Shown: positions 44,571 through 61,313 of the stretch, in pieces
How the letters are laid out: every line of letters starts with the position of its first letter
Numbering within the stretch: position 1 is the first letter of the stretch
The notes under the pieces: generated by a model
Databases searched by the model: none
What the model was told of the DNA's origin: nothing
What the model saw: the letters and a program-made list of their open reading frames with translations, nothing else
Program-made: the position numbers and the translations under genes
Assembly: GCA_035765775.1 (NCBI GenBank)
Contig: DASTWV010000057.1
Coordinates: forward strand, 27,160-91,159
Length of the DNA: 64,000 nucleotides
Reading direction: 5' to 3'
Source: Actinomycetota bacterium
Lineage (GTDB): Bacteria > Actinomycetota > CADDZG01 > JAHWKV01 > JAOPZY01

Positions 44571-44748
44571 CTTGTCGCTCCTCCCTTATGCCAACAGAGC
44601 CATCGTCCCACGCAGGGCCGGAGTGCCAAGAGTTCAAGAGGTGTTCACGCTCCGTTCACACAAACGGGGCGTTGCGCTGCGCGGCACTGTGTAGGCTCGA
44701 GAGAGAACCGATGAACAGGACCGAGGGGCCGAGAGGCCGGAGAAGCCA

Positions 44749-45387
44749 TTGAAGAGGGGACAGCCGGGTCCCGAGACCGCCGTGGACCGCCTGCTGGAGC
44801 GCCAGCGGTTGGCGCAGGCACTGGCCTACGTCCCGGCCGGGGTCCGCCTGCTCGACGTGGGGTGCGGCGACGGCGCCCTCCTGCGGGCCGCCGGATCCCG
44901 GATCGGATGGGGGGTGGGCATCGACCCCGCCCTCCCCGGCACCATCATCGGGCGCAACTACCGGTTGGTCCGGGGGGCGTTCCCCCAGCACCTCGACGAC
45001 CGGGACCCCTTCGACGTCATCACCCTGCTGGCGCTCCTCGAGGAAGTACCCCGGGGCCAGCTCCCCGCCCTGGCCTCGGCCTGCGCCATGCACCTGCACC
45101 CGGGCGGGCGCCTCATCGTCACCACGCCCTCACCGGGGGTGGACGGGGTGGCCCGCCTGCTGGAGAGCGCCCACGTCATCTCGGGCCCGCCCCGGCGGCG
45201 CACCCTGCTCGATGCCGCCGAGATCCGGGACGTCTTCGCCGCCGCCGGGCTTTCCATCGAGGCCAGCCGGCACTTCGAGCTCGGCTACAACAACGTGCTG
45301 GTTTTCGCCCGGAACCGCCTGGCGCGGACCTTCATCCAGCTGCCCGACACCGCCCCCCGGCACCCGGTCCTCTCCGGCCGGGGCTGA
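44749..45387 (+). CDS. Class I SAM-dependent methyltransferase
   Basis: Motif I LLDVGCGDGALL and motif II HLHPGGRLIV. 212 aa. Confidence 0.75.
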   Translation: MKRGQPGPETAVDRLLERQRLAQALAYVPAGVRLLDVGCGDGALLRAAGSRIGWGVGIDPALPGTIIGRNYRLVRGAFPQHLDDRDPFDVITLLALLEEVPRGQLPALASACAMHLHPGGRLIVTTPSPGVDGVARLLESAHVISGPPRRRTLLDAAEIRDVFAAAGLSIEASRHFELGYNNVLVFARNRLARTFIQLPDTAPRHPVLSGRG

Positions 45388-45723
45388 TCCCCCGGCGGCC
45401 CGCCGGCTGGTGTAGCGCTCGTACTGCATCCGGAACAGGGCGATCACGCCCTCGGCGTCCTCGGGGCGGCGCATCCAGCAGCTCACCCACCCGCTGTCGG
45501 GCAGCACATGGTGGGGCTCGGCCCGGCCTGCAGCGATCACCTCGTCGTGGATGCGGCGGGGGAAGGGCAGGTCCGCCAGGCGGTCGCCGTGCACGTGGCC
45601 CAACTCCCGGCGGCCGAGCCGGTACTCGATCCCGCCGAAGCGGTGCACGGTGGTCGCAACCCCCGGCCAGGATGCCACCGCCTCACGGATCAACTGGCCG
45701 GCGGATTTCGCAGACGTGGCCAT
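45130..45723 (-). CDS. Hypothetical protein (true 3' end uncertain; ORF overlaps convergent methyltransferase by ~250 nt)
   Basis: Internal ATG MATSAKSAGQLIREAVASWPGVATTVHRFGGIEYRLGRRELGHVHGDRLADLPFPRRIHDEVIAAGRAEPHHVLPDSGWVSCWMRRPEDAEGVIALFRMQYERY. This ~110-aa N-terminal part is compositionally protein-like. The C-terminal tail overlapping the methyltransferase is Gly/Pro-rich and probably not translated in this form. Confidence 0.35.
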   Translation of the reverse strand: MATSAKSAGQLIREAVASWPGVATTVHRFGGIEYRLGRRELGHVHGDRLADLPFPRRIHDEVIAAGRAEPHHVLPDSGWVSCWMRRPEDAEGVIALFRMQYERYTSRRAAGGSAPAGEDRVPGGGVGQLDEGPRQAVPGENQHVVVAELEVPAGLDGKPGGGEDVPDLGGIEQGAPPGRARDDVGALQQAGHPVHPR

Positions 45724-45992
45724 GAACCACGGTACTCCGGGCCAAATTTTTAACTTGACCGCCGCGCCCGGCGTCCGGAGAATCAAGAGAAATCGGCGAT
45801 TCCCGTGCCACTGGGGGCCCCCGCTTGTATCACCAAACGGACAACTCGCCAGCGATTCACGTACCACCGGCCCCCGATCCCGCCCGGGGGGCCGCCGCTA
45901 TCCACACCGGCGCCTCGGCCGCCATGCTGGCCACCCGCGGCGCCAGCCCCGGGGTCGTCCCGGCCAAGATCCGGGCACCCAGGGCGGATGGC

Positions 45993-48815
45993 ATGCGCCG
46001 GCTCCGGCTCGAGGAGGCCCTCGCCGCCGGGGCGTGGGACCGCACGCTGAGCCTGATAGCCGCCCCGGCGGGCGCGGGCAAGACGACGCTGCTGGCCCAG
46101 TGCGCCGCCGCGCTGGGCGCGCCGGCCGCCTGGTACCGGGTCGAGGAATCCGACGGCGACGCCCGCCTTGCGCTGGCCTACCTCGAGGCCACCCTGCGTG
46201 ACGCCCTCCCCGGCCTGCCCGGCCTCCCGGGCGGGTGGGCGAGCGTGGAGGACGCCGTGCTCGCCCTGGAGGGGTCCCCCGCCACCCGGGTGGTCCTGGT
46301 GGTCGACGACCTCCACCTCCTCGAGGGGACACCGGCGGCCGGGGCCTTCGAGCAGTTGCTCGCCTACCGGCCCCCGTCGCTGGCCGTCCTGGCCGCCACC
46401 CGGCGCGTGCCGTCCCTGGCCCTGCTCACCCGCCTGCGCATCGCCGGCCAGCTCCTCTACCTGGGGGCCGAGGACCTCCGCTTCCGGAGCTGGGAGGTGG
46501 AGCGCCTGTTCGCCGAGCACTACCGCCAGCCCCTCCCGCCGGAGGAGGCGGGCGAGCTGGCCCGCCGGACCGAGGGCTGGGCCGCCGGGCTGCAGATGTT
46601 CCACCTGGGCACCAGCGGCAAGACCGCCACCGAACGGCGCCAGACCCTGGCCGCCCTCGCCACCCGGCGGCTGGCCCGCGAGTACCTCGCCCGCAACGTG
46701 CTGGACGACCTGCCGCCCGCGCTGCGCCAGTTCCTGGTCGGAAGCTGCGTCCTCAGCCGCATGTCCGGGCCGCTGTGCGACGCCCTGCTCGGCACCACCG
46801 GCAGCGAGCGCTGCCTGCAGGAGCTGGAGCGCCGCCAGGTGTTCACCTCCACACTCGACACCGGCGGCTACCGCTACCACGAAGCCCTCCGGGCGCACCT
46901 CGAAGGGGTGCTGCGGGAGGAGCTCGGCCCCGACCTCGCCCGGGACCGCTACCGCAAGGCGGGGACCGTCCTGGAGGCCGACGGGCTGGCGGTCGACGCC
47001 CTGCAGGCGTACTGCCGGGCAGAGGACTGGCCGTCGGTGGAGCGGCTGCTGGGCGCGGCGGGCGGCAGCCTGGCCATGGGGCGGGGCGACTGGATCAGCC
47101 TGCTCCCAGCGAACCTGCGCGCCCACGATCCCTGGGCACTGCTGGCCACCGCCCGCCGGCTGCGGGCGCACGGCCGCTGGACCGAGGCCCAGGCCACCTA
47201 CCGCCTCGCCGAGGAGGGGTTCGGCTCCCAGGCCGGCCCGCAGACCGGCCTGGACAGCGCGGTGGAGGAGCGCCTCGCCCTGGGCTCCTGGATGGAGCCC
47301 GCCCCGCCTGCCCCCGACTGGAGCGGGGCTCTCCGCCGGGCGGTCGCCGGCGACCCCCTGGGCGCCCTGGCCGGCGGCATCGCCGGGGCGCGCGGGCTGC
47401 TGGCGGGGGGCCTGGCCAGCCTGCTGGCCGGGGACGTCGATGAGGCCCGGAGCCGGCTCGCCACCGTCCTCGGCGCCGAGGACGCCAGCCCCGAGCTGGC
47501 TGCCGGGGCCATGGTCGCCGAGGCGGCCGCCGCGGCCCTCGCCGGTCTCCCGGAGGCCAAGGAACTCGCCGAGCACGCCTCGGCCCGGGCCGAGGAGCTG
47601 CGGATCCCCTGGCTGGCCCGGGTCGGCCAGGCGGTCCTCGCCCTCACCGACCGCCCGGACGGGCGCTCCGAGGCAGCCGCGGCCCGCTTCTTCTGCCAGG
47701 AGCAGGGCGACGCCTGGGGCGCCAGCCTCGCCGGGCTGCTCGAGGGCCTCGGGGAGCTGCAGGCGGGCGGGACGCACGCCGGCGTGCTGGAACAGGCCGC
47801 CCACGGCTTCGCCGGGCTGCACGCCTACGTCCTCGAGGCCTGGTGCCTGTGCGCCCGGGCCGCGATGCTGGCCGCCGCCGCCGACCCGCAGGCCCGGGCA
47901 GCGGCCGATCACGCCGAGCGCCAGGCCCGCCGCGTGGGCCTGCGGGGACCGTGGGCGCTGGCCTACCTCGCCCTTGCCCGCATCGACGGGGCCTCGCTCG
48001 ACGAGGTCGGCCGCTGGGCCGGGGCGCTCAGCCGGGACAGCGGGTTGGCCCTGCTGCGTGCCTTCGCAGCCCCCCGGGCAAGGACGGGCCCGGCTGACCC
48101 CCCGCCGCCCCCCGTGCGGGTGCAGTGCTTCGGCGGGTTCAGCCTCTCGGTGGGCGGCGCCGAGGCGGACCTCGCCCGGGTGAAGCCCCGACCCAGGAAG
48201 CTTCTGCACCTGCTGGCCCTGCACGCCGGCGCCCCCCTGCACCGTGAGGTCCTGATCGAAGCTCTGTGGCCGGGCGCCGATCCCCGCGTGGGTGCCCGGA
48301 ACCTGCACGTGGCGGTCTCGGTCCTGCGCCAGTGCCTCCAGTCCGCCCCTGTGTCAGGGGCGGTGCGCATCGACCGGGACGGGGAGGACTACCGGCTGGT
48401 CCCGGCCGCGGCCTGGTCGGTCGATGTCGTCGAACTGGCCGACCTCGTGGGGCGCGCCCGGCGCCTCCAGGCAGGCGGCGAGCAGGCCGAGGCCGTCGGG
48501 ACGCTGACCACCGCCCTCAGCATCTACCGGGGCGAGCTCTTCCCGGAGGACGGGCCGGACGACTGGGTGGTGCGGGCCCGGGAGCGCTTCCGGTCCCTGG
48601 CGGTCGAGTCCGCCTGCGAGCTGGCCGACCTCCTCCTGGCCGAGGGCGACGGGCTGGCCGCGGCCCGGGCATGCGAGCTGGGCCTGGACGCCGACCACAC
48701 CCGGGATGACCTGTGGCGGGCCCTCGAGGAGGCCCACGAGTTGGCTGGCAACCACGCCGCCGCCCTGGCGGCGCACCGGCGCTACGAGAAGGTGCTGGCC
48801 GACCTGGGGATTTAG
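45993..48815 (+). CDS. Large regulator: N-terminal NB-ARC/AAA ATPase + TPR-like repeats, C-terminal SARP module (OmpR-type winged HTH + BTAD)
   Basis: MalT/LAL-like N-terminus RLRLEEALAAGAWDRTLSLIAAPAGAGKTTLLAQ (P-loop), with LVVDDLHLL as Walker B. A long Ala/Leu-rich helical repeat region follows. The C-terminus has VRVQCFGGFSLSVGG....RPRKLLHLLALHAGAPLHREVLIEALWPG (wHTH) and ELFPEDGPDDWVVRARERFRSLAVESACELADLLLAEGD....AALAAHRRYEKVLADLGI (BTAD). The domain order is inverted relative to canonical AfsR/SARP-LAL proteins. The internal ATG at 45993 is used. Confidence 0.8.
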   Translation: MRRLRLEEALAAGAWDRTLSLIAAPAGAGKTTLLAQCAAALGAPAAWYRVEESDGDARLALAYLEATLRDALPGLPGLPGGWASVEDAVLALEGSPATRVVLVVDDLHLLEGTPAAGAFEQLLAYRPPSLAVLAATRRVPSLALLTRLRIAGQLLYLGAEDLRFRSWEVERLFAEHYRQPLPPEEAGELARRTEGWAAGLQMFHLGTSGKTATERRQTLAALATRRLAREYLARNVLDDLPPALRQFLVGSCVLSRMSGPLCDALLGTTGSERCLQELERRQVFTSTLDTGGYRYHEALRAHLEGVLREELGPDLARDRYRKAGTVLEADGLAVDALQAYCRAEDWPSVERLLGAAGGSLAMGRGDWISLLPANLRAHDPWALLATARRLRAHGRWTEAQATYRLAEEGFGSQAGPQTGLDSAVEERLALGSWMEPAPPAPDWSGALRRAVAGDPLGALAGGIAGARGLLAGGLASLLAGDVDEARSRLATVLGAEDASPELAAGAMVAEAAAAALAGLPEAKELAEHASARAEELRIPWLARVGQAVLALTDRPDGRSEAAAARFFCQEQGDAWGASLAGLLEGLGELQAGGTHAGVLEQAAHGFAGLHAYVLEAWCLCARAAMLAAAADPQARAAADHAERQARRVGLRGPWALAYLALARIDGASLDEVGRWAGALSRDSGLALLRAFAAPRARTGPADPPPPPVRVQCFGGFSLSVGGAEADLARVKPRPRKLLHLLALHAGAPLHREVLIEALWPGADPRVGARNLHVAVSVLRQCLQSAPVSGAVRIDRDGEDYRLVPAAAWSVDVVELADLVGRARRLQAGGEQAEAVGTLTTALSIYRGELFPEDGPDDWVVRARERFRSLAVESACELADLLLAEGDGLAAARACELGLDADHTRDDLWRALEEAHELAGNHAAALAAHRRYEKVLADLGI

Positions 48816-48840
48816 CGTCGGCGGTGCTGCCGACGCTCGC
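48816..48840. terminator. Bidirectional hairpin between convergent genes (putative terminator)
   Basis: A perfect 9-bp inverted repeat, AGCGTCGGC-ggtgct-GCCGACGCT, lies immediately after the regulator's TAG and 6 nt before the PAAR gene stop. A short T-run (TTT) precedes it on the plus strand. Confidence 0.4.
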
Positions 48841-48845
48841 CGAGC

Positions 48846-49148
48846 CTAGCCGCCGATCTCCACGGTCGGGAGACCCAAAGCGATCGCCCCGCCGTGCGCG
48901 GTGGTGTCGCCCATCCGGGCGGCGGGCTTGCCGTTGATCAGGACCGTGACCGAGCCCTTCACGATCGTGTCGGGCGGCCCCACGCAGGTGCACATCATGC
49001 CCATCGTGGCCGCCGGGACGCCCCCGATCAACACCGGGGGGCCTGCCGGGGGCCCGGTCACCGGCCCGCCGACGTGCGGTATGGGCGGCGTTCCGGGCGT
49101 GACCATCGGGCAGGTGTGCATGTCGCCGATGCGGGCCGCCGGGGGCAT
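48846..49148 (-). CDS. PAAR-domain spike-tip protein
   Basis: 100 aa from an internal ATG behind the AAGGAG RBS. Sequence MPPAARIGDMHTCPMVTPG...PVLIGGVPAATMGMMCTCVGPPDTIVKGSVTVLINGKPAARMGDTTAHGGAIALGLPTVEIGG carries three PAAR-like motifs (PAARIGD, PAATMG, PAARMGD). Confidence 0.85.
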   Translation of the reverse strand: MPPAARIGDMHTCPMVTPGTPPIPHVGGPVTGPPAGPPVLIGGVPAATMGMMCTCVGPPDTIVKGSVTVLINGKPAARMGDTTAHGGAIALGLPTVEIGG

Positions 49149-49155
49149 GGCTCTC

Positions 49156-51804
49156 CTACTCCTTGGTGAAGAACTCCAGCTCACTGATGGCCACGGAGGT
49201 GCCACCGCTGGACGACGGGTAGACCGACTCGATGGTGATCGTCACCCCCCGGATGCCATGGCCGTGCTCCAGGGTCAGGAGCTGGGCGTCGGGCTGGTTC
49301 TTGAGCGTCAGGGTGTCCGACTGCCCGTTGCTGTAGCTGATGAGCACCGACTTCGGCCGCGGCTCGGCGACAAAGGTGGCGCCAATGCCGCTGAACACGT
49401 TCACCCGGTCCAGGTTGACCGGTTGCTGGGACGTGGAGGAAAAGAGGATGAACATCGAGACCCCCACCCCGAGCTTGGGGCTCGCCTGCGCCTGCCACCA
49501 GGTGTTGGTGTGACCGTCGATGGCCTGCGCCGCCAGGTGCGTGGGCACTGAGGAGGTCGACGAGGCGTTCAACGGCGTCACCAGGTTGTAGTGCGGCGAC
49601 ACCTTCTTGCGGATGCTGGAGGTGACGCTCTTCACCTTGTTCTCGACTGTCTTGCGGTACGGCCCGGCGGCGGCCACGATCCCGGCGACCACCGCCAGGG
49701 CGATTATGATCTTGATCACCTTGCCCACTGCCGAGGGCTTGGGGGCTGTCCGGCTCCCGTGGCCCTGGGCCGGCCGTTCGCCGGCGGCGAGCACCGCCTT
49801 CTTCCGCCCGAAGATGCGCTTCCACCAGGAGACCTTGGGTGTCGGGGCCACGACCGCCGCCTCCAGCGAGGTGCCACAGCGCCGGCAGAACCTGCGGTTG
49901 GGCGTATTGCCCTCACCGCACTGGCCGCAGATGAGGTCGCCCGGAGCGTAGGTGCGGGCCGGTGGCGGCGCCTCCGCAGGGGCGGGCCGGGCTTTGGCGG
50001 CCGCGGGCTTCACCGCCTCGGGCTGGGACACCTGGGGCTTCACCGCCGCGGGGGCCTGGGGCGGCATCGGTCCCCCGTACGGCGAGGGCGACGCGGCGTA
50101 GGGAGGCGCCGGTGCGCCGGGGGCCGGGGCTGGCGTGTCGGCTCGTGACGCGGCCGCGGGGGCCTGCGTCGCCGGAGCCGGTTCCCAGAGGGAACGCTGC
50201 GGCGGCGGAGGGCCCGGTGGTGCGGGAGGAGGTGGAGCTCCCCACAGAGGAGGTCCCGCGGGCGCGGCAGGCGGCGCGGGCGGGCCTGCTGCCGGTGCCG
50301 GGGTGGGTCGGGGGCCGGCCGGCGATGCCCCGGGCGGTGGTGGTGGGGGCGCCTTGGCCACGAGTGCCGCTGCTCGGCGGGCAGCCTCCTGGGCCTTGGC
50401 CGCCTGCTCGGCGGCGAGGCGGGCCTCCTCCTGCGCCCGGCGGGCCTCCTCTTCCGCCTGGGCCTTGGCGGCGGCCTCCGCTTCCGCGCGTCGGGCCTGC
50501 GCCTCCGCTTCCCGGCGGGCGGCCTCATGAGCCTGGGCGGCAGCTGCAGCCCGAGCCTCCTCCTCGAGCCGGGCGGCCTGCTCAGCCTGGCGCGCCTGTT
50601 CCGCCTCGGCAGCCTCCTCGGCCGGCGTTGGGGGTGGCGTGCCGTCCGGTCCAGCCGCCAGGCCAGCCCCGGGCGCCGAGCCGGCGTCGCCGGGCGACGG
50701 GGGCGACCCAAACGACGTGGCGGGCGCAGGCGGCGAGAGAGGCGCAGCAGGCGATACGGCGGGCTCCGACGGCGCCGGCCCAGCAGGCGGGCGGGTCCCC
50801 AGGACGCTCTGCATCCGTGGACGACGTGCCCTGCCGGTTTCCGGCGCCGGGGCGCCCGTCGATGCCGGGGCGTCAGCCGCTGCGGTCGACAGAGATTCGG
50901 CTTCGGCGCCTACCGGTCCTTCCGGACCGGCGGGTGCAGGGGCGTCGTCCGCCAAGGACCGGCGCCCGGGGCGAGCCGGCCCCAACGGAGCGTCGCTCAG
51001 GCTGTAGCGGCCGGACGCGAGCGGTTCTGCCCATGGTTCCACCCGGGCCCGGGCAGGCTCTCCCGCCGGCCCAGGCGGCTCCGCACTCGGCCCAGGAGGC
51101 GCTGCTCCCACCGGTCCGGGTGGCCGTTCGGCGGTCTTCTCACCCCGCGGGCCCGGTCTCGGCCCACCGGTCCCGGCCGCCTCGGCCGGGGGCTCCGGTG
51201 CCACGTCCGGACCCGGTTTCGGTCCCGGCTTGGACGCTTCCTCCGAGCGGGCCGCAGCCGCAGCCGCCTCAGCAGCCGCCTGCATTTGGGCCTGGGCGGC
51301 GTCGGCAGCTTGGGTGGCGTCGGCAGCTTGGGCGGCCTGCCGTCTCGCAGCTTCCTCGGCCTCAGCGGCGGCGTGGCGCCGGGCGGCTTCCTCAGCCTCG
51401 GCCCGTTGGTGCTCCTGCTCGGCGGCCACCCGGGCGGCCTCGGCCGCAGCCCGCCGGGCCTGCTCCTCGGCGGCGGCACGGCGGGCGGCTTCCTCGGCGG
51501 CTCGGCGGGCGGCCTCCTCGGCCTCCGCTGCCCGGCGGCGGGCTTCCTCGGCAGCTCGCTGGGCGGCGAGGCGCTGGCGCTCCTCCTCCCGTTGCCGGAG
51601 CTCGGTGGCCAGGTCGGGCGGCGGGGGGGGCGGGGTCAGCGGAGCCGGCGCCGGGGTGGGTGAAGGCACCGGAGCGGCCTCCGGGGGGAACGCCGGGGCG
51701 GCGGGTGCCTCGCGCTCCCCGGTGAATTCCAGGAAGGAGCCGCAGGAACCGCAGAACTCGTCGCCGTCCTCGTTGCGGTTCCCGCACTGCTTACAGATGA
51801 TCAA
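49156..51804 (-). CDS. Double zinc-ribbon / coiled-coil / single-TM / discoidin (F5/8 type C)-like domain protein embedded in the CIS operon
   Basis: The likely TTG start overlaps the gpI stop, and a GAGGTGG RBS lies 7 nt upstream. The N-terminal zinc ribbon is IICKQCGNRNEDGDEFCGSCGSF. About 500 aa of Ala/Glu/Arg-rich coiled-coil (RRAAEAEEAARRAAEEAARR...) alternate with Pro-rich segments. A second zinc ribbon is LICGQCGEGNTPNRRFCRRCGTS. One TM helix (VIKIIIALAVVAGIVAAAG) follows. The C-terminal ~170 aa, AIDGHTNTWWQAQ....GGTSVAISELEFF, resembles the F5_F8_type_C/NPCBM carbohydrate-binding fold. The upstream ~115 codons of track ORF 49156..52149 are a non-coding extension. Confidence 0.7.
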   Translation of the reverse strand: MIICKQCGNRNEDGDEFCGSCGSFLEFTGEREAPAAPAFPPEAAPVPSPTPAPAPLTPPPPPPDLATELRQREEERQRLAAQRAAEEARRRAAEAEEAARRAAEEAARRAAAEEQARRAAAEAARVAAEQEHQRAEAEEAARRHAAAEAEEAARRQAAQAADATQAADAAQAQMQAAAEAAAAAARSEEASKPGPKPGPDVAPEPPAEAAGTGGPRPGPRGEKTAERPPGPVGAAPPGPSAEPPGPAGEPARARVEPWAEPLASGRYSLSDAPLGPARPGRRSLADDAPAPAGPEGPVGAEAESLSTAAADAPASTGAPAPETGRARRPRMQSVLGTRPPAGPAPSEPAVSPAAPLSPPAPATSFGSPPSPGDAGSAPGAGLAAGPDGTPPPTPAEEAAEAEQARQAEQAARLEEEARAAAAAQAHEAARREAEAQARRAEAEAAAKAQAEEEARRAQEEARLAAEQAAKAQEAARRAAALVAKAPPPPPPGASPAGPRPTPAPAAGPPAPPAAPAGPPLWGAPPPPAPPGPPPPQRSLWEPAPATQAPAAASRADTPAPAPGAPAPPYAASPSPYGGPMPPQAPAAVKPQVSQPEAVKPAAAKARPAPAEAPPPARTYAPGDLICGQCGEGNTPNRRFCRRCGTSLEAAVVAPTPKVSWWKRIFGRKKAVLAAGERPAQGHGSRTAPKPSAVGKVIKIIIALAVVAGIVAAAGPYRKTVENKVKSVTSSIRKKVSPHYNLVTPLNASSTSSVPTHLAAQAIDGHTNTWWQAQASPKLGVGVSMFILFSSTSQQPVNLDRVNVFSGIGATFVAEPRPKSVLISYSNGQSDTLTLKNQPDAQLLTLEHGHGIRGVTITIESVYPSSSGGTSVAISELEFFTKE

Positions 51805-52340
51805 CCGGTGACCACCTCGATCTGGTGGGGGATGTGGGCGGGCTTTCCCGAGGAAACTACCGCTTCGAGCCGTTGGCGATCCACAACTCCTGCATCGGCC
51901 ACCCGAACCCGCACCTTGAGGGACGGCTCGGCGGTGCCCGGGAGATCGCCGTTGGGCACCGGCGACCACGCGGCGGCCCCGCTCTCCTCCACCTCGACGT
52001 CGCCCCCGAAGACAAGGCGCACTAGCCCGACCAACCCCCGCACCGTCCCCCGCTGCGCGTAGAGCGCGGACGCCTCGCCCACCAGCGCCCGCCGCCGCTC
52101 CAGCGACCAGGTCTCGTCCAGCACCACCCCCACCCAGCCGGCCAACCATTCCAAAAAGTCCGGGGGAGCGACGGCGGGGCTCAGGTAGGCGTCGAGGTTG
52201 TCGAGGGCCAGGAACACCGGCGCCAGCACCTCATCCAGCCCGGCGGTGATGCGCTGGGTGAAGCTGTCCTCGTAGTAGATCGGCGGCAGCAGGAACCCCA
52301 GCGGCTGGGGGCTGGCCATACCCCGGACGGCGCCCCTCAT
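51801..52340 (-). CDS. Baseplate protein, P2 gpI-like (Afp12/Pvc12 position)
   Basis: LLPPIYYED...DAYLSPAVAPPDFLEWLAGWVGVVLDETWSLERRRALVGEASALYAQRGT matches the Tail_P2_I family signature (LLPP....LLPWLA....W....R.....HR.KGT). The ATG overlaps the gpJ stop (ATGA). Confidence 0.75.
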   Translation of the reverse strand: MRGAVRGMASPQPLGFLLPPIYYEDSFTQRITAGLDEVLAPVFLALDNLDAYLSPAVAPPDFLEWLAGWVGVVLDETWSLERRRALVGEASALYAQRGTVRGLVGLVRLVFGGDVEVEESGAAAWSPVPNGDLPGTAEPSLKVRVRVADAGVVDRQRLEAVVSSGKPAHIPHQIEVVTG

Positions 52341-54283
52341 GCCGGCTCGACCAGGACCTGGTGCCCGTAGGAGAACACCAGGGCATGGGGGTCGATCGCC
52401 AGGCGCTGCACGGCCTCGCCCCGCCGGCCGGTGATCGGATCCGCCGGGTAGAGGCGGGCCTCGTCCACCAGCTCGACACCCGGCAGGCGCTGCAGGACCG
52501 CGTAGACCTCACCCGCGTGGATGGGGCGCCCGAACGGCCAGCCGGTCCCGTCGGGGCCGCCGCTGATCGGGTGGAAGTACCCGTAGAGGGCTTCGACCGC
52601 CGCCGCCCGCAGGCGGTCCACCGAGGCCGACCGGCGGGCCCGCAGCCGGGCCACCACGGTGATCCCCTGGTAGACCGGGGGCTCCACCACCAGGCGGGAG
52701 CCGATCACCCGGCGCTCGTCGAGGGCCCCCGCGACCCGGGCGAGCGTCTCGTCCGAGGGGACCAGCTGCTCGAACTCCAGGCGCCCGGCCTCCCGCTCGC
52801 TGGCCGCCGGCACCACCAGCACCCGGACGGCCCCGGGATCGGCGCCATTGCCCGCAGGCGCACACCGGACCCGGGCGACCTCGGGCGCCGCCTCGAGGGA
52901 GATCTGCTCGTAGTCCTCGGCGGTCACCGCCCGGTCCCGGGTCCGCAGGGTGAGGGGGCCCCGCAGTTTCGCCGACTCCAGGTCCTCGCCGTCCACCCCG
53001 CCCGAAGCGGGGCGCCGGTTCACCACCGAGCCCACGAAGGGGATCGTGGTGCGCAGCACCGAGATGGCACCCCGAGCGACGTTGCCCCGCCGGCCGCCGC
53101 CGGTGCGGTAGGAGCGCACCCGCAGGACGGCGCCGTCGCCCGGGGCGGCCCCGTACCGGCGCAGGGACCCGTCGGGCTCCCGGACGGCGGGGCCGAAGGC
53201 GATCTCGCCGCTGGCGGCGTCCAGCTGGAAGTGGCGGTCGTGCGGGCCGCTGTGGGCGAAGCCGTCCACCGGAGCCCACTCCTCCCACCCCTCGCCCTCG
53301 CTCACCTCGAGGATCACGGGGGCCTCCCCCGGGACCACCGGGGCGTTGCGCAGCGGGTAGCGCTGGCCGGCGCCCCCGGTGGCGGTGGCCACCACCTCGC
53401 CCTCGATGATCTCGGCGTTCACCGCCACCGTCGTCCCGCCGATGGTGGACGCCGCCACCCGGCTGATGAACGGCGGGGCGCTGTAGACCGGCTGGCCCTC
53501 CTCGGCGTCGGTGACCCGGCAGCGCAGCCAGCCCGCCCGTCGGCCGGCGATCTGGGAGGCCTGGTGGGAGGCGGGGACGTGCAGCACCACCTCGCCGTCC
53601 TTGTTCAGGCCCCCGGTGGTGTCCCGCTCGAGCTCGCAGACTGCCCAGCCCCGGCCATCCCATGCCTCCCAGGCAATCGGGGGGTTCCGGGGGTCGACAC
53701 CGACGCCCTCGATCCGGCAGCCCAGCTCCAGGAGGACCGCACACGACGGCACCGGGTTGGACAGGCCGATCAGGAGGGCGTCGCCCGGCTTGGGGGGCGC
53801 ATCGAAGCACGGGAAGCCATCCCCGATCTCCAGCCGGTCGGTCTGGTCGCCGGCCTGTGGGCCGAGGGCCGTGGCGACGCGAGACCGGGAGCACGGAACA
53901 ATGGCGAGGTCCGAGAGCACCGTGAACGACACCGCCTCCTCGGTGGGCGTGCGCAGCGTCGATACCTCGGTCCCGGCGGGGACGTCGATGGTGACCTCCT
54001 GGGTGGCGGACAGCCAGAAGGTCACGTCCACCTTGGCGGCGGTGGGTGGGAACAGCCGGATCCCCATGAGGTCCAGGAACTTGATGTAGAGCCGGTCGGG
54101 CACCCGGTTCAGCCGGAACAGCAGCTGGTCGGTCATGAAGGCGAACGTCTCGATCAGCGTCACGCCCGGGTCGGAAACGTTGTGGTCGGTCCACTCCGGG
54201 CAGCGCTGCTGGACCAGGCGCTTGGCCTCGTCGACCAGGTCCTGGAACCGGCGATCATCCAGGTTCGGCGCCGGCAGCGTCAT
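52337..54283 (-). CDS. Baseplate J-like protein (gpJ / Afp11 homologue)
   Basis: 648 aa. The N-terminal LDDRRFQDLVDEAKRLV....WTDHNVSDPGVTLIETFAFMTDQLLFRLNRVP is the conserved Baseplate_J N-terminus. Confidence 0.85.
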   Translation of the reverse strand: MTLPAPNLDDRRFQDLVDEAKRLVQQRCPEWTDHNVSDPGVTLIETFAFMTDQLLFRLNRVPDRLYIKFLDLMGIRLFPPTAAKVDVTFWLSATQEVTIDVPAGTEVSTLRTPTEEAVSFTVLSDLAIVPCSRSRVATALGPQAGDQTDRLEIGDGFPCFDAPPKPGDALLIGLSNPVPSCAVLLELGCRIEGVGVDPRNPPIAWEAWDGRGWAVCELERDTTGGLNKDGEVVLHVPASHQASQIAGRRAGWLRCRVTDAEEGQPVYSAPPFISRVAASTIGGTTVAVNAEIIEGEVVATATGGAGQRYPLRNAPVVPGEAPVILEVSEGEGWEEWAPVDGFAHSGPHDRHFQLDAASGEIAFGPAVREPDGSLRRYGAAPGDGAVLRVRSYRTGGGRRGNVARGAISVLRTTIPFVGSVVNRRPASGGVDGEDLESAKLRGPLTLRTRDRAVTAEDYEQISLEAAPEVARVRCAPAGNGADPGAVRVLVVPAASEREAGRLEFEQLVPSDETLARVAGALDERRVIGSRLVVEPPVYQGITVVARLRARRSASVDRLRAAAVEALYGYFHPISGGPDGTGWPFGRPIHAGEVYAVLQRLPGVELVDEARLYPADPITGRRGEAVQRLAIDPHALVFSYGHQVLVEPA

Positions 54284-54702
54284 TCCCCGACCCCCGCTTC
54301 CGGCAGGGTCTCGCTCGGGATCACGTAGAAGGGGAACACCAGGTTGCGGGGGTCATTGGTGCCGCGGATCGAGTACTGCACGTCGATGTAGACCGTCGAG
54401 GCATCGGCCGGGTCGGTGGTCACCGCGATCCCTTCCACATCCACCCGGGGCTCCCAGCGCTCGATCGACCGGCGCACCTCGTAGGCGATCCGCCCGGCGG
54501 TGGACCCGGTGACGGCGGCGAAGACGAAGTCGTGGATGGCGCACCCGAACTCGGGGCGCATCGGCCGCTCGCCGTAGGCGGTCCCGATGATGAGCCGGAT
54601 GGCCTCCTCGACCTCCTGTTCGCGCCCGACGAGGGCGATGCCCCCGCTGGCGCTGGTGCGCACCGGGAAGGCCCAGCCCTTGCCGACGAAGTCCTCGGTC
54701 AC
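54280..54702 (-). CDS. gp25/GPW-like baseplate wedge protein (lysozyme-like fold)
   Basis: VTEDFVGKGWAFPVRTSASGGIALVGREQEVEEAIRLIIGTAYGERPMRPEFGCAIHDFVFAAV....IERWEPRV belongs to the GPW_gp25 family. The GTG start follows a GAGGGAG RBS, and the track ORF extends further upstream into noise. Confidence 0.85.
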   Translation of the reverse strand: MTEDFVGKGWAFPVRTSASGGIALVGREQEVEEAIRLIIGTAYGERPMRPEFGCAIHDFVFAAVTGSTAGRIAYEVRRSIERWEPRVDVEGIAVTTDPADASTVYIDVQYSIRGTNDPRNLVFPFYVIPSETLPEAGVGE

Positions 54703-54728
54703 GTGCGCTCCCTCATCGTTGGCCCACC

Positions 54729-56597
54729 TCAGTTGATCTTGACGATGGCGCCCTGGACCTGGACCATGGCGCCGCCTTTGAGCTCGGCAGTGGCGTTGGC
54801 GTTGATGCTGATCGTGGCGCCCTGCACCGTGACCTGGGCGGTTCCGTTCGCCTTCAGCTGCACCCCCTTGATCTCGACGTTGCCGCCGCCGCCGTCGATC
54901 GACACCCCGCTGTCGGCCTTGATGCTCACCTGGCGGCCCTTGAGGTCCAGGTTGCCCGCTGCGGTGATCTTGATGTCGCCCGGGGCCCCCTTGCACTCGA
55001 TCTCGATGGTCCCGTCGGCATTGATGGTCAGCTTCTGGTTGTTCTTCGACAGCTTCACGATGTACTTGCTGTCGCCGGTCTGCAGCAGGATCCCGTCGTC
55101 GGTCCCCTCCTTCTCGGTGAAGGAGAGGCGGTGGTGGGTGCGGCTGAAGAAGTCCCGGCGCTGGACCTTGCCCGAGGCATCGTCGATGGTCGGCACCGAG
55201 CCGGTCGGCGGCTTGTCGACGCCGTTGTAGAGCCCGGCCAGCACGTACGGCCGGCGGCTGTCGCCCTGCTCGAAGGCCACCAGCACCTCGTCGCCCACCT
55301 CGGGCACCAGCACGGCCCCGTACCCGTTGCCCGCCGAGATCTGGGCGACCCGCGCCCAGTCGCTTTCGTAGGTATCGTCCAGCCAGGGGAACTTCAGCTT
55401 GACCCGGCACTGGTTCTCCGGGTCCTTGGCATTGGTCACGATCGCCTGCACCACCCCGGGGATGGGTTTCCGGGACGCGGAACCGCTGCCCTTGCCCGCT
55501 GCCCCGCCGGAAGCGAGGCCCAGCAGCGTCGAGTTCTGCTTGCCGCTCACGGTGAAAAAGGTGGTGTAGCCGCCGTCGGGGTCATAGTGGTGGCGGGCGG
55601 AGGTCAGGCGGTACTTACCGTCGAACGGCTTGCCCACCTGCCCGAGGCTGACGGCCGCCCCCGCCTTCAGGTCGGTGTTGCCCAGGGCCACGCCGTCGAA
55701 GGTGGCGGAGGCGCTGCCGATGTCCTCGGCCCGGGCCGCGGCGGCGGCCTCGCACTCGGCCTGCGTGGCGAACGGGATGCTGGCGGCGAGGTGCGTCGGC
55801 GAGCCGAATTTGCCGCCCAGGTCCGCCGGGGTGACATCGAGATGGCTGGCGGAGCTCTTCGCCGGCGACGTCCCCACTATCTCCCGCTTCTGCTTGGGGT
55901 CCCAGCTCCGGACCTTGACCTCCGTGACCTGCTCGGCGGCGGAGACCGCGCAGCGGAAGCTCAGCAGGTTCTCCCCCAGGGTGAGCTGCAACGGGTTGGT
56001 GGAGGCAAGCGTGCCGGGGCCCGGAGCGCCCGACGCCGACTGCGGCTTGCGGAAGTCGAGCTTGCCCTTGGTGACCATCAGCTCGTAGCCCACCTCGGCC
56101 GACAGCCCACCGAGGAAGTCCCAGTCCGAGCAGTTGAACTGCGTGATCACGTCGTGCACGACCGATGTCGAGTCGACGGTCCCCAGCGACAGTCCATTGC
56201 GCTGGGCCACCTTGCCCGCCACGTCCGAGTAGCTCATGTTCTTGTAGGCCGCGGTGGTCCGCCCCCGGAACAAGCGGTGGGACGTGTCGAGTCCGCGGAC
56301 CACCGAGAGCGTCCCCAGCGGGTCGTGCTCGGCCTCCAGGGCCGTGATCTCGGCGTCCTCGATCAGGACCGTTCCCGAGGGGCTGGCATCCGACACCACC
56401 TTGATGGTCACCTTGCCGCCGATCTGGATCCCGGACGAGGCCGCAAACACCACCCGGCCAGGGTCCCGGAAGGTGAGCACGAAGGCGTCCGGGAGGTTGA
56501 GGCTGGTCTCCACGTAGGCGGACACCAGCAGCTCCTCGAGCGACGCGCTGAGCGGGGAGCCTGCGAGGCTCACCGACAGCGAGTGGGTGGGGTTCAT
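54729..56597 (-). CDS. VgrG/gpD-gp5-like central spike protein
   Basis: 622 aa from an internal ATG overlapping the upstream stop (ATGA). An N-terminal Phage_GPD-like region and a middle OB/gp5-like region (GVVQAIVTNAKDPENQCRVKLKFPWLDDTYESDWARVAQISAGNGYGAVLVPEVGDEVLVAFEQGDSRRPYVLAGLYNG) are present. The C-terminus is a beta-helix of repeats (KLTINADGTIEIECKG...DIKITAAGNLDLKGRQVSIKADSGVSIDGGGGNVEIKG...). Confidence 0.85.
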   Translation of the reverse strand: MNPTHSLSVSLAGSPLSASLEELLVSAYVETSLNLPDAFVLTFRDPGRVVFAASSGIQIGGKVTIKVVSDASPSGTVLIEDAEITALEAEHDPLGTLSVVRGLDTSHRLFRGRTTAAYKNMSYSDVAGKVAQRNGLSLGTVDSTSVVHDVITQFNCSDWDFLGGLSAEVGYELMVTKGKLDFRKPQSASGAPGPGTLASTNPLQLTLGENLLSFRCAVSAAEQVTEVKVRSWDPKQKREIVGTSPAKSSASHLDVTPADLGGKFGSPTHLAASIPFATQAECEAAAAARAEDIGSASATFDGVALGNTDLKAGAAVSLGQVGKPFDGKYRLTSARHHYDPDGGYTTFFTVSGKQNSTLLGLASGGAAGKGSGSASRKPIPGVVQAIVTNAKDPENQCRVKLKFPWLDDTYESDWARVAQISAGNGYGAVLVPEVGDEVLVAFEQGDSRRPYVLAGLYNGVDKPPTGSVPTIDDASGKVQRRDFFSRTHHRLSFTEKEGTDDGILLQTGDSKYIVKLSKNNQKLTINADGTIEIECKGAPGDIKITAAGNLDLKGRQVSIKADSGVSIDGGGGNVEIKGVQLKANGTAQVTVQGATISINANATAELKGGAMVQVQGAIVKIN

Positions 56598-57310
56598 GCC
56601 GGCCCCGCTGCCGAGGAGATCGAGGGGATGAGCAGGTGGCGACCGGCGGCCACCCGGAGCGGGTCGTCGATCCCATTGGCCTCGGCCAGCGCCCGCCACA
56701 GCGTCGGGTCGCCGTACTCCTGGTAGGCGATGCCAGCCAGCGTGTCCCCCTCGAGGAACTGGCGGGTCGCCATCGCCGCCAGAGCCCCCGAGGTGGGGTT
56801 CTGCTTGCCCTGCTTGGTCGGCAGCTCGTGCAGGGTGAGGGAGCACACCGCCCGGATCGGCTTGCCGTTGGGGTGGAACAGCGTGTAGCGGGCGCTGACC
56901 TGCTGGATGTAGCCCACGAAGTACACCTTGTCCCAGCCGAAGCGCACCGCAGGGGGCACCGGCCGGTCCTTGCCCTGCGAGGCGGACGTCGGCGTGCAGG
57001 CATCGATGAGCTTCTGCACGTCCTTGGAGACGTCCCCGTCGGACTCCTCCGAGGCGTCGAGGAACATCTCCAGGCTCATGTGCGACGGGTTGGGCCCCAT
57101 GTACTGCGCCGGCCCGGCGTTGCTGCTGCCGGCGACGTTGGTGGTCTGCCAGTTGGCGCTCTTGGCGATGGAGAACTCCTGGGGGTTGAACTGGAAGTGG
57201 ATGGTGCCCGTGGTCGAGCCGGCGCTCACCTCGCCGGTCGAGGAGCTCTTGATCTCGGCCAGCTCCAGGTAGGCCATGGTGAAGCCCGAGGGCGGGGGTC
57301 CTATGGGCAT
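56594..57310 (-). CDS. LysM-domain baseplate hub / tube-initiator-like protein (Afp7/Pvc7 position)
   Basis: The C-terminal LysM domain reads GDTLAGIAYQEYGDPTLWRALAEANGIDDPLRVAAGRHLLIPS. The N-terminal ~180 aa is beta-rich and tube-like. Position between the tube and spike genes. Confidence 0.7.
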   Translation of the reverse strand: MPIGPPPSGFTMAYLELAEIKSSSTGEVSAGSTTGTIHFQFNPQEFSIAKSANWQTTNVAGSSNAGPAQYMGPNPSHMSLEMFLDASEESDGDVSKDVQKLIDACTPTSASQGKDRPVPPAVRFGWDKVYFVGYIQQVSARYTLFHPNGKPIRAVCSLTLHELPTKQGKQNPTSGALAAMATRQFLEGDTLAGIAYQEYGDPTLWRALAEANGIDDPLRVAAGRHLLIPSISSAAGPA

Positions 57311-57313
57311 GGC

Positions 57314-57754: not shown

Positions 57755-57770
57755 GTCGGTCGGTTTCCTT

Positions 57771-61148: not shown

Positions 61149-61154
61149 CGGGGC

Positions 61155-61313
61155 TCACCTACCCCGGTCCTGTTCCTCGTTCAGCCGTCCGATCTCCTTC
61201 ACGAAGCGCTGCCGGACGGGATGCTCGAGGTCCAGGATGTCGTCGAGGCTCCAGTGGAAGTGGTAGGCGACGTACGCGACCTCCCGGTAGAGCCGGTCTG
61301 GCGCGTACGTCAC
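61155..61313 (-). CDS. Small ORF (52 aa) in -1 frame overlapping the preceding gene's stop
   Basis: The GTG start overlaps the TGA of ORF 61310..61783 (tcGTGAcg). It encodes VTYAPDRLYREVAYVAYHFHWSLDDILDLEHPVRQRFVKEIGRLNEEQDRGR, which is protein-like and has high GC3, and it ends 7 nt before the Pro-rich gene. It may be an independent small protein or a -1 frameshift extension. Confidence 0.3.
   Translation of the reverse strand: MTYAPDRLYREVAYVAYHFHWSLDDILDLEHPVRQRFVKEIGRLNEEQDRGR

Follow-up and report, generated by a model that had tools for sequence, protein, structure and literature searches.

Within the window, the whole 64-kb stretch of DNA analysed here, a long plus-strand reading frame ends at 48815, as had been proposed, and converges on minus-strand genes whose assignment to a CIS operon is borne out by Pfam, which recognises sheath, two gp19-type tube genes, CIS_tube/LysM, gp25, Baseplate_J, Tail_P2_I and PAAR (Table 1). 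The stops of the regulator and PAAR genes lie 30 bp apart, again as proposed. Another reading frame upstream of the sheath gene has its stop at 63946, so the operon runs past the window edge.

Table 1. Features of the regulator gene, the convergent gap and the CIS operon. Residues follow the 963-aa numbering; the genes of the operon are listed 3' to 5'.
Feature	Position	Strand	Basis or remark
Candidate sigma-70-like promoter of the regulator, TTGACC-17-GAGAAT	45755-45783	+	Motif scan, conservation
Regulator gene	45825-48815	+	TTG 45825 start favoured; stop codon 48813-48815
MalT-type STAND core (nucleotide-binding domain and winged-helix/arm), residues about 12-383	45957-47072	+	NCBIfam, PDB, Foldseek
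Walker A P-loop APAGAGKTT, residues 47-55	46062-46088	+	Direct sequence reading
Walker B acidic pair D128 and D129 in VVDDLH	46305-46310	+	Invariant in 24 relatives
All-helical solenoid, residues about 321-715	46884-48068	+	AF2 secondary structure, pLDDT roughly 80-95
Flexible linker from sensor to DNA-binding module, residues 716-726	48069-48101	+	pLDDT below 50
OmpR-type winged helix-turn-helix (wHTH), residues 731-833	48114-48422	+	Pfam Trans_reg_C E 1.3e-7; EmbR and AfsR matches
Bacterial transcriptional activation domain (BTAD), residues 834-960	48423-48803	+	Pfam BTAD E 6e-13
Perfect 9-bp inverted repeat, AGCGTCGGC (48814-48822) and GCCGACGCT (48829-48837), 6-nt loop	48814-48837		Overlaps regulator stop codon
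CIS operon	48846-63804	-	Pfam scans
PAAR	48846-49205	-	PAAR_motif E 2e-22
Zinc-ribbon/F5-8C-like ORF	49156-52149	-	CIS operon
Tail_P2_I	51801-52340	-	Pfam
Baseplate_J	52337-54283	-	Pfam
gp25	54280-55410	-	Pfam
CIS_tube+LysM	56594-57310	-	Pfam
gp19 tube	57314-57754	-	Pfam
1125-aa ORF	57771-61148	-	CIS operon
157-aa ORF	61310-61783	-	CIS operon
Tube	61783-62226	-	CIS operon
Sheath	62275-63804	-	CIS operon

The regulator comprises 996 aa when read from TTG 45825 and 963 aa when read from ATG 45924, the latter form being an exact match to a database record (P0001). We favour the TTG, with the ATG as the other candidate, because it coincides in alignment with the start called for an 84%-identical orthologue, brings back an N-terminal motif common to the relatives P0002-P0005, and is preceded 7 nt upstream by a Shine-Dalgarno-like GGGGG run. 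The start originally assigned, ATG 45993, is rejected because it would cut off the conserved motif VVxAKxRxP, which aligns with the N-terminus of MalT. Further upstream, a single sigma-70-like site is seen where 0.0 are expected, and both of its hexamer regions are conserved in the locus of the 84%-identical orthologue (L001), making it a candidate for the promoter of the regulator gene.

A hairpin had been described between the convergent genes. Its perfect 9-bp repeat is present, but its stability does not exceed chance: the minimum free energies of -23.5 and -24.5 kcal/mol lie at z = -0.19 and -0.68 relative to shuffled sequence. The hairpin has no T-tract, and the gap between the regulator and PAAR genes varies among relatives, from 237 nt in L001 to a 4-nt overlap in L005. 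Given the chance-level energy and the missing T-tract we do not call a terminator here, and the idea of a bidirectional one is rejected.

What kind of protein is encoded? Pfam, PDB profile search, AF2 and Foldseek concur on the predicted order of domains, with the P-loop/AAA part first and Trans_reg_C and BTAD at the extreme C-terminus (residues 731-960 of 963). The ATPase itself, which had been named NB-ARC, yields no NB-ARC Pfam match at E <= 0.1, and its best match is MalT instead. The NCBIfam MalT model (PRK04841) is matched over positions 3-384 with an E-value of 4e-45, the MalT structure 8bob is the top PDB match in the profile search (E 2e-46), 8bob_C takes the first rank in Foldseek with the regulator model, and Pfam WHD_MalT (PF25873) is present in relatives. 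Across the conservation set of 24 relatives at 47-84% identity, A47, P48, A49, G50, G52, K53 and T55 of the P-loop are invariant, as are R792, L794, H795, V796, A797, S799 and R802 of the wHTH, whose recognition helix occupies about residues 787-805 (window 48282-48338). Both domains of the C-terminal module score above their Pfam cut-offs (Trans_reg_C 32.0 bits vs 26.2, BTAD 49.8 bits vs 22.1). In the AF2 model (pLDDT 82.6) this module resembles the SARP module of AfsR in the RNAP complexes 8k60 and 8hvr (target TM 0.72, rmsd 3.7-3.8 A). AF2 models the predicted TPR region as an all-helical solenoid, whereas Pfam gives no TPR match in the window protein and weak ones in some relatives; the solenoid is presumably the sensor domain, of a TPR/SUPR-like kind.

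The AF2 model thus contains the four parts of the STAND layout in their order: P-loop NOD, winged helix, repeat sensor and effector. As in MalT and the LAL proteins, a MalT-type STAND ATPase with Walker A and B motifs is followed by the MalT winged helix, and Pfam finds no match to the C-terminal LuxR/GerE-type HTH of that group in the regulator. The SARP hallmark of an OmpR-type wHTH directly before an all-helical BTAD is present at the C-terminus, whereas the module is N-terminal in the described SARP classes (small, medium, large and SARP-LAL; PMC10972967, PMC10936776), and the NB-ARC domain of AfsR-type large SARPs is absent. The regulator is a MalT/LAL chassis in which a SARP output replaces the LuxR HTH. 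The original prediction of an inverted AfsR/NB-ARC SARP therefore does not hold: the core is MalT-type, and nothing is inverted, since the effector domain of the MalT clade is normally C-terminal.

The closest comparison is with MalT, which has the same succession of N-terminal ATPase, winged helix/arm, helical-repeat sensor and C-terminal DNA-binding effector, and significant sequence and fold similarity to the regulator over about 370 residues. The MalT effector, however, is a LuxR/GerE HTH rather than an OmpR-type wHTH plus BTAD, no sequence match is detectable between the sensor regions of the two proteins, and the NCBIfam MalT score of 154 bits against a cut-off of 537 means that the regulator is not a MalT equivalog. 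AfsR and the large SARPs and SARP-LALs (PimR, SanG, PolY) likewise combine a SARP module, an ATPase switch and helical repeats in about 1000 aa, but the AfsR-type ATPase is NB-ARC where that of the regulator is MalT-type, and their target systems are biosynthetic clusters rather than a CIS. The best sequence match to the C-terminal 245 aa is EmbR of Mycobacterium tuberculosis (E 8e-8 alone, 3e-15 with the family profile), which has the recognition-helix signature H..VS.LR..L in common with the regulator; unlike the latter, EmbR is a wHTH-BTAD-FHA protein with an N-terminal SARP module and no ATPase.

The architecture is no rarity and belongs to a populated family with names already in databases. 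At least 120 full-length relatives with the same architecture occur among the matches listed, and 461 candidate relatives are found in GTDB species genomes, the best 80 of which match over their full length. Their hosts are Dormibacterota, Chloroflexota and Actinomycetota, mostly uncultured, the Actinomycetota being non-streptomycete. A literature search for a C-terminal SARP or MalT-BTAD architecture returned nothing relevant. As to the origin of the family, an effector swap from a CIS-adjacent LAL was considered and dropped, the LAL in L007 having no significant similarity to the regulator.

The linkage of this family to CIS genes is strict. In the GTDB species genomes, 61 loci have enough flank to be judged, and all 61 carry CIS genes within 10 kb of the orthologue: the regulator converges with the CIS 3' end, as in the window, in 54 of them, is co-directional with the sheath downstream in 6, and has the CIS upstream in 1. 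The genes on the non-CIS flank are unrelated from locus to locus; the contigs of the next-closest relatives (P0010, P0003) stop just past the regulator, with the non-CIS flank readable. BTAD has been reported as a regulatory 'shell' domain, 28-fold enriched around eCIS and represented by 96 genes in 5 phyla (Geller et al. 2021), and the window, where a complete CIS operon lies with its PAAR gene 30 bp from a BTAD gene, conforms to this association. The 'shell' genes of that study (eCIStem) are very probably the same gene set as the present family. One of them, Mjls_0921 of Mycobacterium sp. JLS (about 881 aa), lies beside Tail_P2_I and Baseplate_J in a position like that of the regulator. Geller et al. 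2021 give the Pfam domain and a general regulatory role, without architecture, ATPase type, operator or cascade. Because its relatives stand beside CIS genes in every judgeable locus, the regulator is very probably a dedicated on-switch of the adjacent CIS. The original proposal of a dedicated CIS regulator is supported by this linkage, by the prevailing convergent arrangement, by the unrelated opposite flank and by the published BTAD enrichment.

Where might such a switch act? In relatives we find a conserved candidate operator of SARP style, new in this analysis, which consists of three direct repeats of CGTTRAS at an 11-bp period, followed by a -10-like hexamer. Its sites are confined to the region ahead of a co-conserved gene for a NarL/GerE-type regulator, located at the 5' end of the CIS, and are present in 19 of 23 loci; in the 4 other GerE-bearing loci the PWM finds none. 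The spaced pair GTTRAB-N5-GTTRAB at period 11 is present in 20 of the 23 GerE-gene upstream regions versus 0-2 at periods 7-19, and over all regulator loci there are 10 exact matches at period 11 versus 0-3 at any other period not divisible by 3. Anchored alignment resolves CGTTRAS in both DR1 and DR2, followed by a degenerate DR3 and, after a spacer of 10 nt, by the hexamer CA.gCT, the putative -10 element. A PWM scan of 2.2 Mb from 164 loci gives 19 matches of at least 12 bits, all of them directly upstream of the GerE gene and on its strand, including 2 sites left out of training; the same scan never places the operator before sheath, Pvc16 or other structural genes. L091, which holds a close relative of the sheath, has no GerE gene in the 3.5 kb upstream of Pvc16. 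SARP sites are characterised by a spacing of 11 or 22 bp and a 3' repeat next to the -10 element (PMC10972967, PMC10936776). If the hexamer is placed at -12 to -7, the first bases of DR2 and DR3 fall at -40 and -29, the positions of DRup and DRdown of AfsR at afsS, so that the candidate operator matches the afs-box geometry, with DR3 ending 10 nt before the hexamer rather than the canonical 8. The sole OmpR-type wHTH protein conserved in the operator loci is the MalT-SARP regulator. Operator and regulator occur together in one genome in 10 loci, all with the GerE gene next to that of the regulator; this count comes from a set in which most convergent loci are not traceable to the 5' end of the cluster. 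From these regularities we infer that the regulator binds the operator and thereby activates the GerE-type gene.

The window itself contains neither part of this arrangement. The best PWM score in its 64 kb is -0.3 bits versus at least 18.9 bits for true sites, with 0 relaxed matches, and it has no GerE homologue; the GerE gene is absent from the nearest relatives' loci as well, as far as these can be read. In exact look-ups, neither the window's sheath protein nor P0001 led to a record running on past position 64000, and the tube protein matched a contig of just 1.3 kb. The heptameric SARP repeats expected around 61150 and in the stretch 63805-63945 ahead of the sheath gene were looked for and are absent, no heptamer repeat of 11- or 22-bp period being found at 63790-64000, 61100-61330 or 45380-45930. 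The pattern CGTTGAC-N4-CGTTGAC with up to 3 mismatches has 9 matches in the window versus 4.9 expected, which is not significant. One of these matches, the intergenic TGTTCAC-GCTC-CGTTCAC at 44642-44659, fails the relaxed consensus and the PWM. Two further candidates were discarded: a direct repeat of 14 nt ahead of the sheath gene has a 40-nt spacing, wrong for a SARP, and does not recur in the upstream regions of the ten closest sheath genes inspected; and TTCGGCTGATGTGTCGCAC arrays with a period of 22-25 nt lie upstream of the regulator in 6 closely related loci only, with no copy in the window. What is conserved ahead of the sheath gene is an inverted repeat, TGCCC-N4-GGGCA; an HTH protein acting as a dimer, or a hairpin in the RNA, would fit it better than a SARP.

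We consider it reasonably probable that the protein is a STAND (NLR-like) activator dedicated to the adjacent CIS, with a SARP output on a MalT-type chassis and, at the level of the family, the promoter of the NarL/GerE-type gene heading the CIS cluster as its likeliest target. In MalT, signal plus ATP leads to oligomerisation and cooperative binding at repeated sites, and by analogy a similar logic is expected of the regulator. A ligand or protein signal would bind the solenoid sensor and relieve autoinhibition, ATP at the conserved Walker A/B site would drive oligomerisation, and the activated protein would switch on the GerE-type gene. The restriction of the operator to this gene suggests a two-tier cascade, in which the sensor would act on the GerE-type regulator and the latter on the CIS structural operons, resembling the step from PimR to the LuxR-type regulator PimM. 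Since the window has neither operator nor GerE homologue, the cascade stays a family-level proposal for this locus; if this genome has both, they would lie beyond the window edge.

The missing GerE gene in the window and in the nearest relatives could also be taken to mean that no intermediate exists and that the regulator binds heptameric repeats directly at the CIS structural promoters, whether ahead of the sheath gene or within the operon. SARPs commonly activate structural operons directly (PMC10972967), and the sheath gene does have a conserved element upstream. That element, however, is an inverted repeat, the three window regions searched lack heptamers of the proper period, no copy of the family operator exists anywhere in the window, and in 164 loci this operator never precedes a structural gene, all of which makes direct binding rather improbable. 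About equally doubtful is the possibility that CGTTRAS is bound by the NarL/GerE-type protein itself, in autoregulation, or by some other factor, with the sites of the MalT-SARP regulator elsewhere. Every operator match accompanies a GerE gene, the loci examined were all chosen through the regulator or the sheath gene, and TGCCCG, which follows DR2 in many sites, resembles a half-site of the sheath-upstream inverted repeat. Yet three head-to-tail repeats of 11-bp period abutting a -10 element are the hallmark of wHTH proteins of the OmpR/PhoB/SARP kind, and their register matches the afs box of AfsR. HTH proteins of the NarL/LuxR type, for their part, usually act as dimers on inverted repeats.

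Two other readings dispense with the CIS promoter or with transcription altogether, and both appear very unlikely. The regulator is transcribed away from the promoter side of the CIS and has its own conserved promoter region, which would fit a pleiotropic, AfsR-like protein or a regulator of the 5' neighbours (methyltransferase, Sir2, dehydrogenase) that adjoins the CIS by accident; but these neighbours are wholly different among loci, while the CIS is constant. Its STAND architecture and a weak Foldseek similarity to Avs4 (rank 14) would also fit an NLR-like immune or stress sensor of Avs type with a non-transcriptional output, its wHTH and BTAD serving protein contacts or being vestigial, and Streptomyces CIS are described as mediating stress-induced cell death. 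Against this stand the invariance of the recognition-helix residues across phyla, the superposition of the SARP module on DNA- and RNAP-bound AfsR, and the existence of a matching operator. More speculative than the activator cascade favoured above, and unlikely in its full extent, is the picture of a new NLR-like class (MalT-type STAND plus C-terminal SARP) acting as master switch of cytoplasmic, cell-death-type CIS across Dormibacterota, Chloroflexota and Actinomycetota, which would sense a stress, damage or phage signal and fire the cascade from CGTTRAS through the NarL-type regulator to the CIS.

For the window itself the gain is modest, as it holds an ordinary member of the family whose target lies outside the given sequence. 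More broadly, little is known of how CIS, cytoplasmic or extracellular, are switched on beyond Streptomyces, where control runs from bldA to SCO4263. SCO4263/SlpR, a cluster-situated LuxR-type regulator needed for CIS particle production, lies at one edge of a related cluster (clade IId-type) and is thus the functional analogue of the regulator, from which its description as LuxR-type and bldA (TTA-codon) dependent sets it apart. For the CIS in several soil phyla, which are abundant and mostly uncultured, the family offers a testable control circuit made up of an ATP-switch sensor, a regulator of the second tier and a defined candidate operator. It extends the SARP concept past antibiotic clusters and past the N-terminal layout of current classifications, and shows that the STAND chassis can swap LuxR-type and SARP-type outputs. 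The regulator and operator could serve to induce silent CIS clusters heterologously. If the picture of a master switch were true, an NLR-type sensor would be tied to a phage-tail-like device for suicide or injection, and bacteria would have a counterpart to the programmed cell death that NLRs trigger.

The domain order put forward in the original prediction, with the ATPase first and a winged helix-turn-helix (wHTH) plus BTAD module at the extreme C-terminus of the regulator, is confirmed by Pfam and by an AlphaFold2 model built on 24 relatives (mean pLDDT 82.6). The Pfam matches are a weak P-loop/AAA one near the N-terminus and Trans_reg_C (E 1.3e-7) followed by BTAD (E 6e-13) at the very end of the protein. 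The ATPase is not of the NB-ARC type that had been supposed: no Pfam NB-ARC match is found at E <= 0.1, and the evidence points to MalT instead. The NCBIfam MalT model matches with E 4e-45 (model positions 3-384), the family profile matches the MalT structure 8bob (E 2e-46), 8bob_C is the top Foldseek match of the AlphaFold2 model, and relatives carry Pfam WHD_MalT (PF25873). Over its C-terminal 235 residues the model superposes on the SARP module of AfsR in the RNAP-promoter complexes 8k60 and 8hvr (TM 0.72, target; rmsd 3.7-3.8 A) and also on EmbR, and both AfsR and EmbR are matched by sequence too.

The regulator is built on a MalT-type STAND chassis, and a SARP module stands where MalT/LAL proteins have a LuxR HTH. 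Since the effector is usually C-terminal within the MalT clade, effector exchange describes the protein better than the ‘inverted’ AfsR-type layout initially ascribed to it. Neither the donor nor the recipient of this exchange can be named, because the one CIS-adjacent LAL tested, from the relative's locus L007, shows no detectable similarity to the regulator. The SARPs described in a 2024 review and in the AfsR structural papers carry the module at the N-terminus only, unlike the regulator, and no C-terminal layout is described in the SARP literature searched, phrase searches included. Among relatives at 47-84% identity the Walker A motif (APAGxGKT), the Walker B pair D128/D129 and the recognition-helix residues R792, L794, H795, V796, A797, S799 and R802 are all invariant.

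This architecture is established in the databases, as the best matching clusters and the GTDB stretches demonstrate. A protein search at E <= 1e-10 returned at least 1100 clusters, and the best 120, for which the architecture is described, are all full-length (~930-1040 aa) with BTAD and WHD_MalT, accompanied by Trans_reg_C in nearly all and AAA_22 in most; the relatives go by the names ‘BTAD domain-containing putative transcriptional regulator’ or ‘DNA-binding SARP family transcriptional activator’. A relative is encoded in 461 stretches from GTDB species representatives, of which the best 80 align almost end to end; these 80 are all MAG-derived, mostly from Dormibacterota, Chloroflexota (including Limnocylindria) and Actinomycetota (e.g. 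Acidimicrobiia, Thermoleophilia, Nitriliruptorales).

Regulator domains (residues of the 963-aa version) and features of the window
Feature	Position	Strand	Basis or remark
Alpha/beta nucleotide-binding domain	residues ~27-230		AlphaFold2 model
Winged-helix/arm region	to residue ~320		AlphaFold2 model
All-helical solenoid	residues ~321-715		AlphaFold2 model
Low-confidence linker	residues 716-726		AlphaFold2 model
Beta/alpha winged HTH	residues 731-833		AlphaFold2 model
Helical BTAD	residues 834-960		AlphaFold2 model
Methyltransferase gene	44749-45387		convergent to ‘Luciferase’ gene
‘Luciferase’ gene	45130-45723	minus	Pfam E 3e-21
Conserved blocks TTTTAACTTGACC, GAGAATCAAG	45755-45801		conserved in L001
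Palindrome AATCGGCGATT	45791-45801		conserved in L001
9-bp inverted repeat, 6-nt loop	48814-48822 / 48829-48837
PAAR gene	48846-49205	minus	Pfam PAAR_motif E 2e-22
CIS operon	48846 to window edge	minus	Pfam: PAAR, zinc-ribbon protein, Tail_P2_I, Baseplate_J, gp25, CIS_tube/LysM, two gp19-type tube proteins, sheath
997-aa ORF	49156-52149	minus	between Tail_P2_I and PAAR
1125-aa ORF	57771-61148	minus	tape-measure position; no Pfam match
CTTCCC	63901-63906	minus
14-nt direct repeat CTGGCTGCCCTCTT	63909-63922	plus (as read)
Inverted repeat TGCCTcttcAGGCA	63927-63940	minus
14-nt direct repeat CTCGCTGCCCTCTT	63949-63962	plus (as read)

The regulator gene is real, a single long plus-strand ORF that ends at 48815 as predicted, while its proposed start at ATG 45993 would cut away a conserved N-terminal motif, VVxAKxRxP, that aligns with the opening residues of MalT. 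An identical protein in the database, P0001, is 963 aa long and begins at ATG 45924. A start at TTG 45825, giving 996 aa, is favoured by its alignment with the called GTG start of an 84%-identical orthologue (locus L001), by the N-terminal motif M-x-H-x-T-D/N-E/D/N-S... that it adds and that is common to the relatives P0002-P0005, and by a GGGGG run 7 nt upstream. At the other end, the 30 bp to the stop of the convergent PAAR gene and the perfect 9-bp hairpin across this gap are both present; the hairpin is unexceptional, with an MFE of -23.5 and -24.5 kcal/mol (z-scores -0.19 and -0.68 against dinucleotide shuffles) and no T-tract at 48814-48837. The gap is not conserved, measuring 237 nt in L001 and being replaced by a 4-nt gene overlap in the Dormibacterota locus L005.

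The palindrome upstream of the regulator lies at its predicted transcription start and is a possible repressor or autoregulatory site; L001 holds two copies of AGAATCAAG, 22 nt apart. The small ‘Luciferase’ gene, divergent from the regulator, is conserved in L001, and its 3' part overlaps the methyltransferase gene by ~250 nt, so that one of the two gene models is possibly wrong. Within the operon, the 997-aa ORF has two zinc-ribbon motifs and, at its C-terminus, an F5/8-type-C-like domain (weak NADase_transloc match), with a very long low-complexity stretch rich in Ala, Pro and Glu in the middle; its true start is probably internal, since the given one overlaps the Tail_P2_I gene. In L005 and L006, both from Dormibacterota, a shorter zinc-ribbon gene is likewise the last of the CIS genes and adjoins the regulator; a conserved accessory or anchoring role in the CIS is possible for this protein. 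The 1125-aa ORF has an unusual codon-position GC content (GC2 0.68).

How closely is the family tied to CIS? All five annotated neighbourhoods of relatives (47-84% identity) contain CIS genes. Of the best 80 GTDB loci, searched by tblastn with the CIS proteins of the window, 61 could be judged, the other 19 having less than 2.7 kb of downstream sequence, and all 61 carry CIS genes within 10 kb of the regulator; they are present in every locus with 4 kb or more downstream. The operon is downstream and convergent, as in the window, in 54 of these loci, six have a co-directional sheath gene 7-10 kb downstream, and in one the CIS lies upstream. The genes on the 5' side of the regulator are unrelated from locus to locus. 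Taken together, the universal CIS and the unrelated 5' flanks are strong comparative evidence of a dedicated functional link, and the predicted role as a dedicated CIS regulator is well supported by comparative genomics, having been partly anticipated in the literature.

In outline, the link had been noted before: Geller et al. 2021 (PMC8213781) list BTAD (PF03704) among eCIS ‘shell’ domains and propose that eCIS are regulated by adjacent GerE- or BTAD-carrying genes; in their supplementary tables BTAD is enriched 28-fold at eCIS (96 genes, 5 phyla, class ‘Regulatory’). In the cultured Mycobacterium sp. JLS the BTAD gene Mjls_0921 (~881 aa) stands immediately next to Tail_P2_I and Baseplate_J (supplementary files 5 and 13) and adjoins a large GerE gene, Mjls_0920; Mjls_0921 is a possible genetically tractable family member. 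Particle production in Streptomyces needs SCO4263/SlpR, a LuxR-type cluster-situated regulator. Other regulators recur near the present CIS loci beside the MalT-SARP gene: a 917-aa LAL (AAA_16-TPR-GerE; L007, 15323-18076), an HD-GerE protein (L003, 5769-7373) and a NarL-type GerE protein (L002, 8925-9551), which suggests multi-layer, lineage-dependent control of CIS.

The invariant recognition helix leads one to expect a conserved operator. A screen for fixed-period heptamer repeats across relatives picked CGTTGAC-N4-CGTTGAC, and the pattern GTTRAB-N5-GTTRAB has 10 exact matches at period 11, against 0-3 at other periods that are not multiples of 3. Nine of the 10 lie directly upstream of a conserved ~226-aa gene whose product is NarL-type (receiver-like domain plus GerE HTH). 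In sheath-anchored metagenome loci the usual order is this GerE-type gene, Pvc16, AAA+ ATPase, eCIS_core, sheath, tube ... Tail_P2_I; the MalT-SARP gene closes the cluster at the opposite end, in convergent orientation. With all loci pooled, a period-11 pair with at most one mismatch occurs in 20 of 23 upstream regions of the GerE-type gene (0-2 for periods 7-19). The anchored alignment of 17 sites reads DR1 CGTTRAS, 4 nt, DR2 CGTTRAS, 4 nt and a degenerate DR3 (CGgaAAg), followed after 10 nt by a CA.gCT hexamer, whose A2 and T6 fit a -10 element. If this hexamer occupies -12 to -7, DR2 starts at -40 and DR3 at -29, matching the DRup (-40 to -30) and DRdown (-29 to -19) of AfsR at afsS in the AfsR structural papers, with one extra repeat a helical turn upstream. 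The TTGAC embedded in DR2 is separated from the hexamer by 20 nt, a greater distance than an unaided sigma-70-type promoter allows and one consistent with an activator requirement. A 45-nt PWM derived from these sites (leave-one-out scores of true sites at least 18.9 bits, median 37.3) yields 19 sites of at least 12 bits over 2.2 Mb in 164 loci; every one is directly upstream of a GerE-type gene on the same strand, and two were outside the training set. In relatives, the GerE-type gene thus has an exclusive, conserved sequence element with the geometry of a SARP operator.

Arrays of a different kind, with 3-6 copies of approximately TTCGGCTGATGTGTCGCAC spaced by 22-25 nt (conserved pattern 25, 22, 23), occur in a group of Dormibacterota/Chloroflexota loci, mostly 300-700 nt upstream of the regulator gene (L005 ~9422, L017 2916-3050, L018 ~5348, L021 ~1126, L024 ~31, L043 ~8323 and ~9699). 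They could be binding-site arrays or small dispersed repeats, and are absent from the window.

The heptameric SARP repeats envisaged upstream of the sheath gene and near 61150 do not occur at an 11- or 22-bp period in 63790-64000, in 61100-61330 or upstream of the regulator. The window contains no relaxed operator match and no GerE-type homologue, and its best PWM score of -0.3 bits is below the mean of 3.3 for shuffle maxima. The operon does not begin with the sheath gene, since a further minus-strand ORF ends at 63946; eCIS_core, AAA+, Pvc16 and GerE, which precede the sheath gene in relatives, take a further 5-9 kb there; the operator of this organism, if the circuit is present, is outside the window. 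The cascade is therefore proposed at the family level, and for this locus it is a prediction. The sheath-upstream region (63805-63945) has, on the minus strand, TGCCC-N4-GGGCA with CTTCCC following after 8-20 nt; the inverted repeat is placed 105-136 nt ahead of the sheath ATG in the window and six other loci. This strict pattern is found in 7 of 75 sheath-upstream regions (the window, L089, L097, L110, L114, L130 and L151), and looser versions in others; it could serve a dimeric HTH protein, such as the GerE-type regulator, as an operator, or form a 5'-UTR RNA hairpin. One copy of the 14-nt direct repeat (40-nt spacing) runs into the end of the ORF that precedes the sheath gene; the repeat was not found in the sheath-upstream regions of the ten closest sheath relatives.

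What could be the mechanism of control? From the relatives' loci we infer a cascade leading from the regulator through the GerE-type gene to the CIS. By what is known of MalT and AfsR, signal binding by the solenoid sensor would lift autoinhibition and ATP binding would promote oligomerisation, upon which neighbouring SARP modules would sit side by side on the direct repeats, touch sigma region 4 and the RNAP core and activate transcription. The NarL-type product would then switch on the CIS operons, with TGCCC-N4-GGGCA and CTTCCC upstream of the sheath as a candidate site. The original prediction had the regulator activate the CIS structural promoters directly, which is disfavoured by the lack of an operator before any structural gene in the window or the 164 loci. 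The NarL-type protein might itself bind the operator found upstream of its gene, although the head-to-tail 11-bp geometry points, short of proof, to a wHTH protein. Control of the non-CIS neighbours is disfavoured in view of their lack of conservation, as is a non-transcriptional, NLR-like role in view of the invariant recognition helix.

The family of MalT-type STAND regulators with SARP output is large, uncharacterised and specific to CIS, and the gene in the window is an ordinary member of it. The candidate operator and the cascade in its relatives are, as far as could be established, new, and they are testable.
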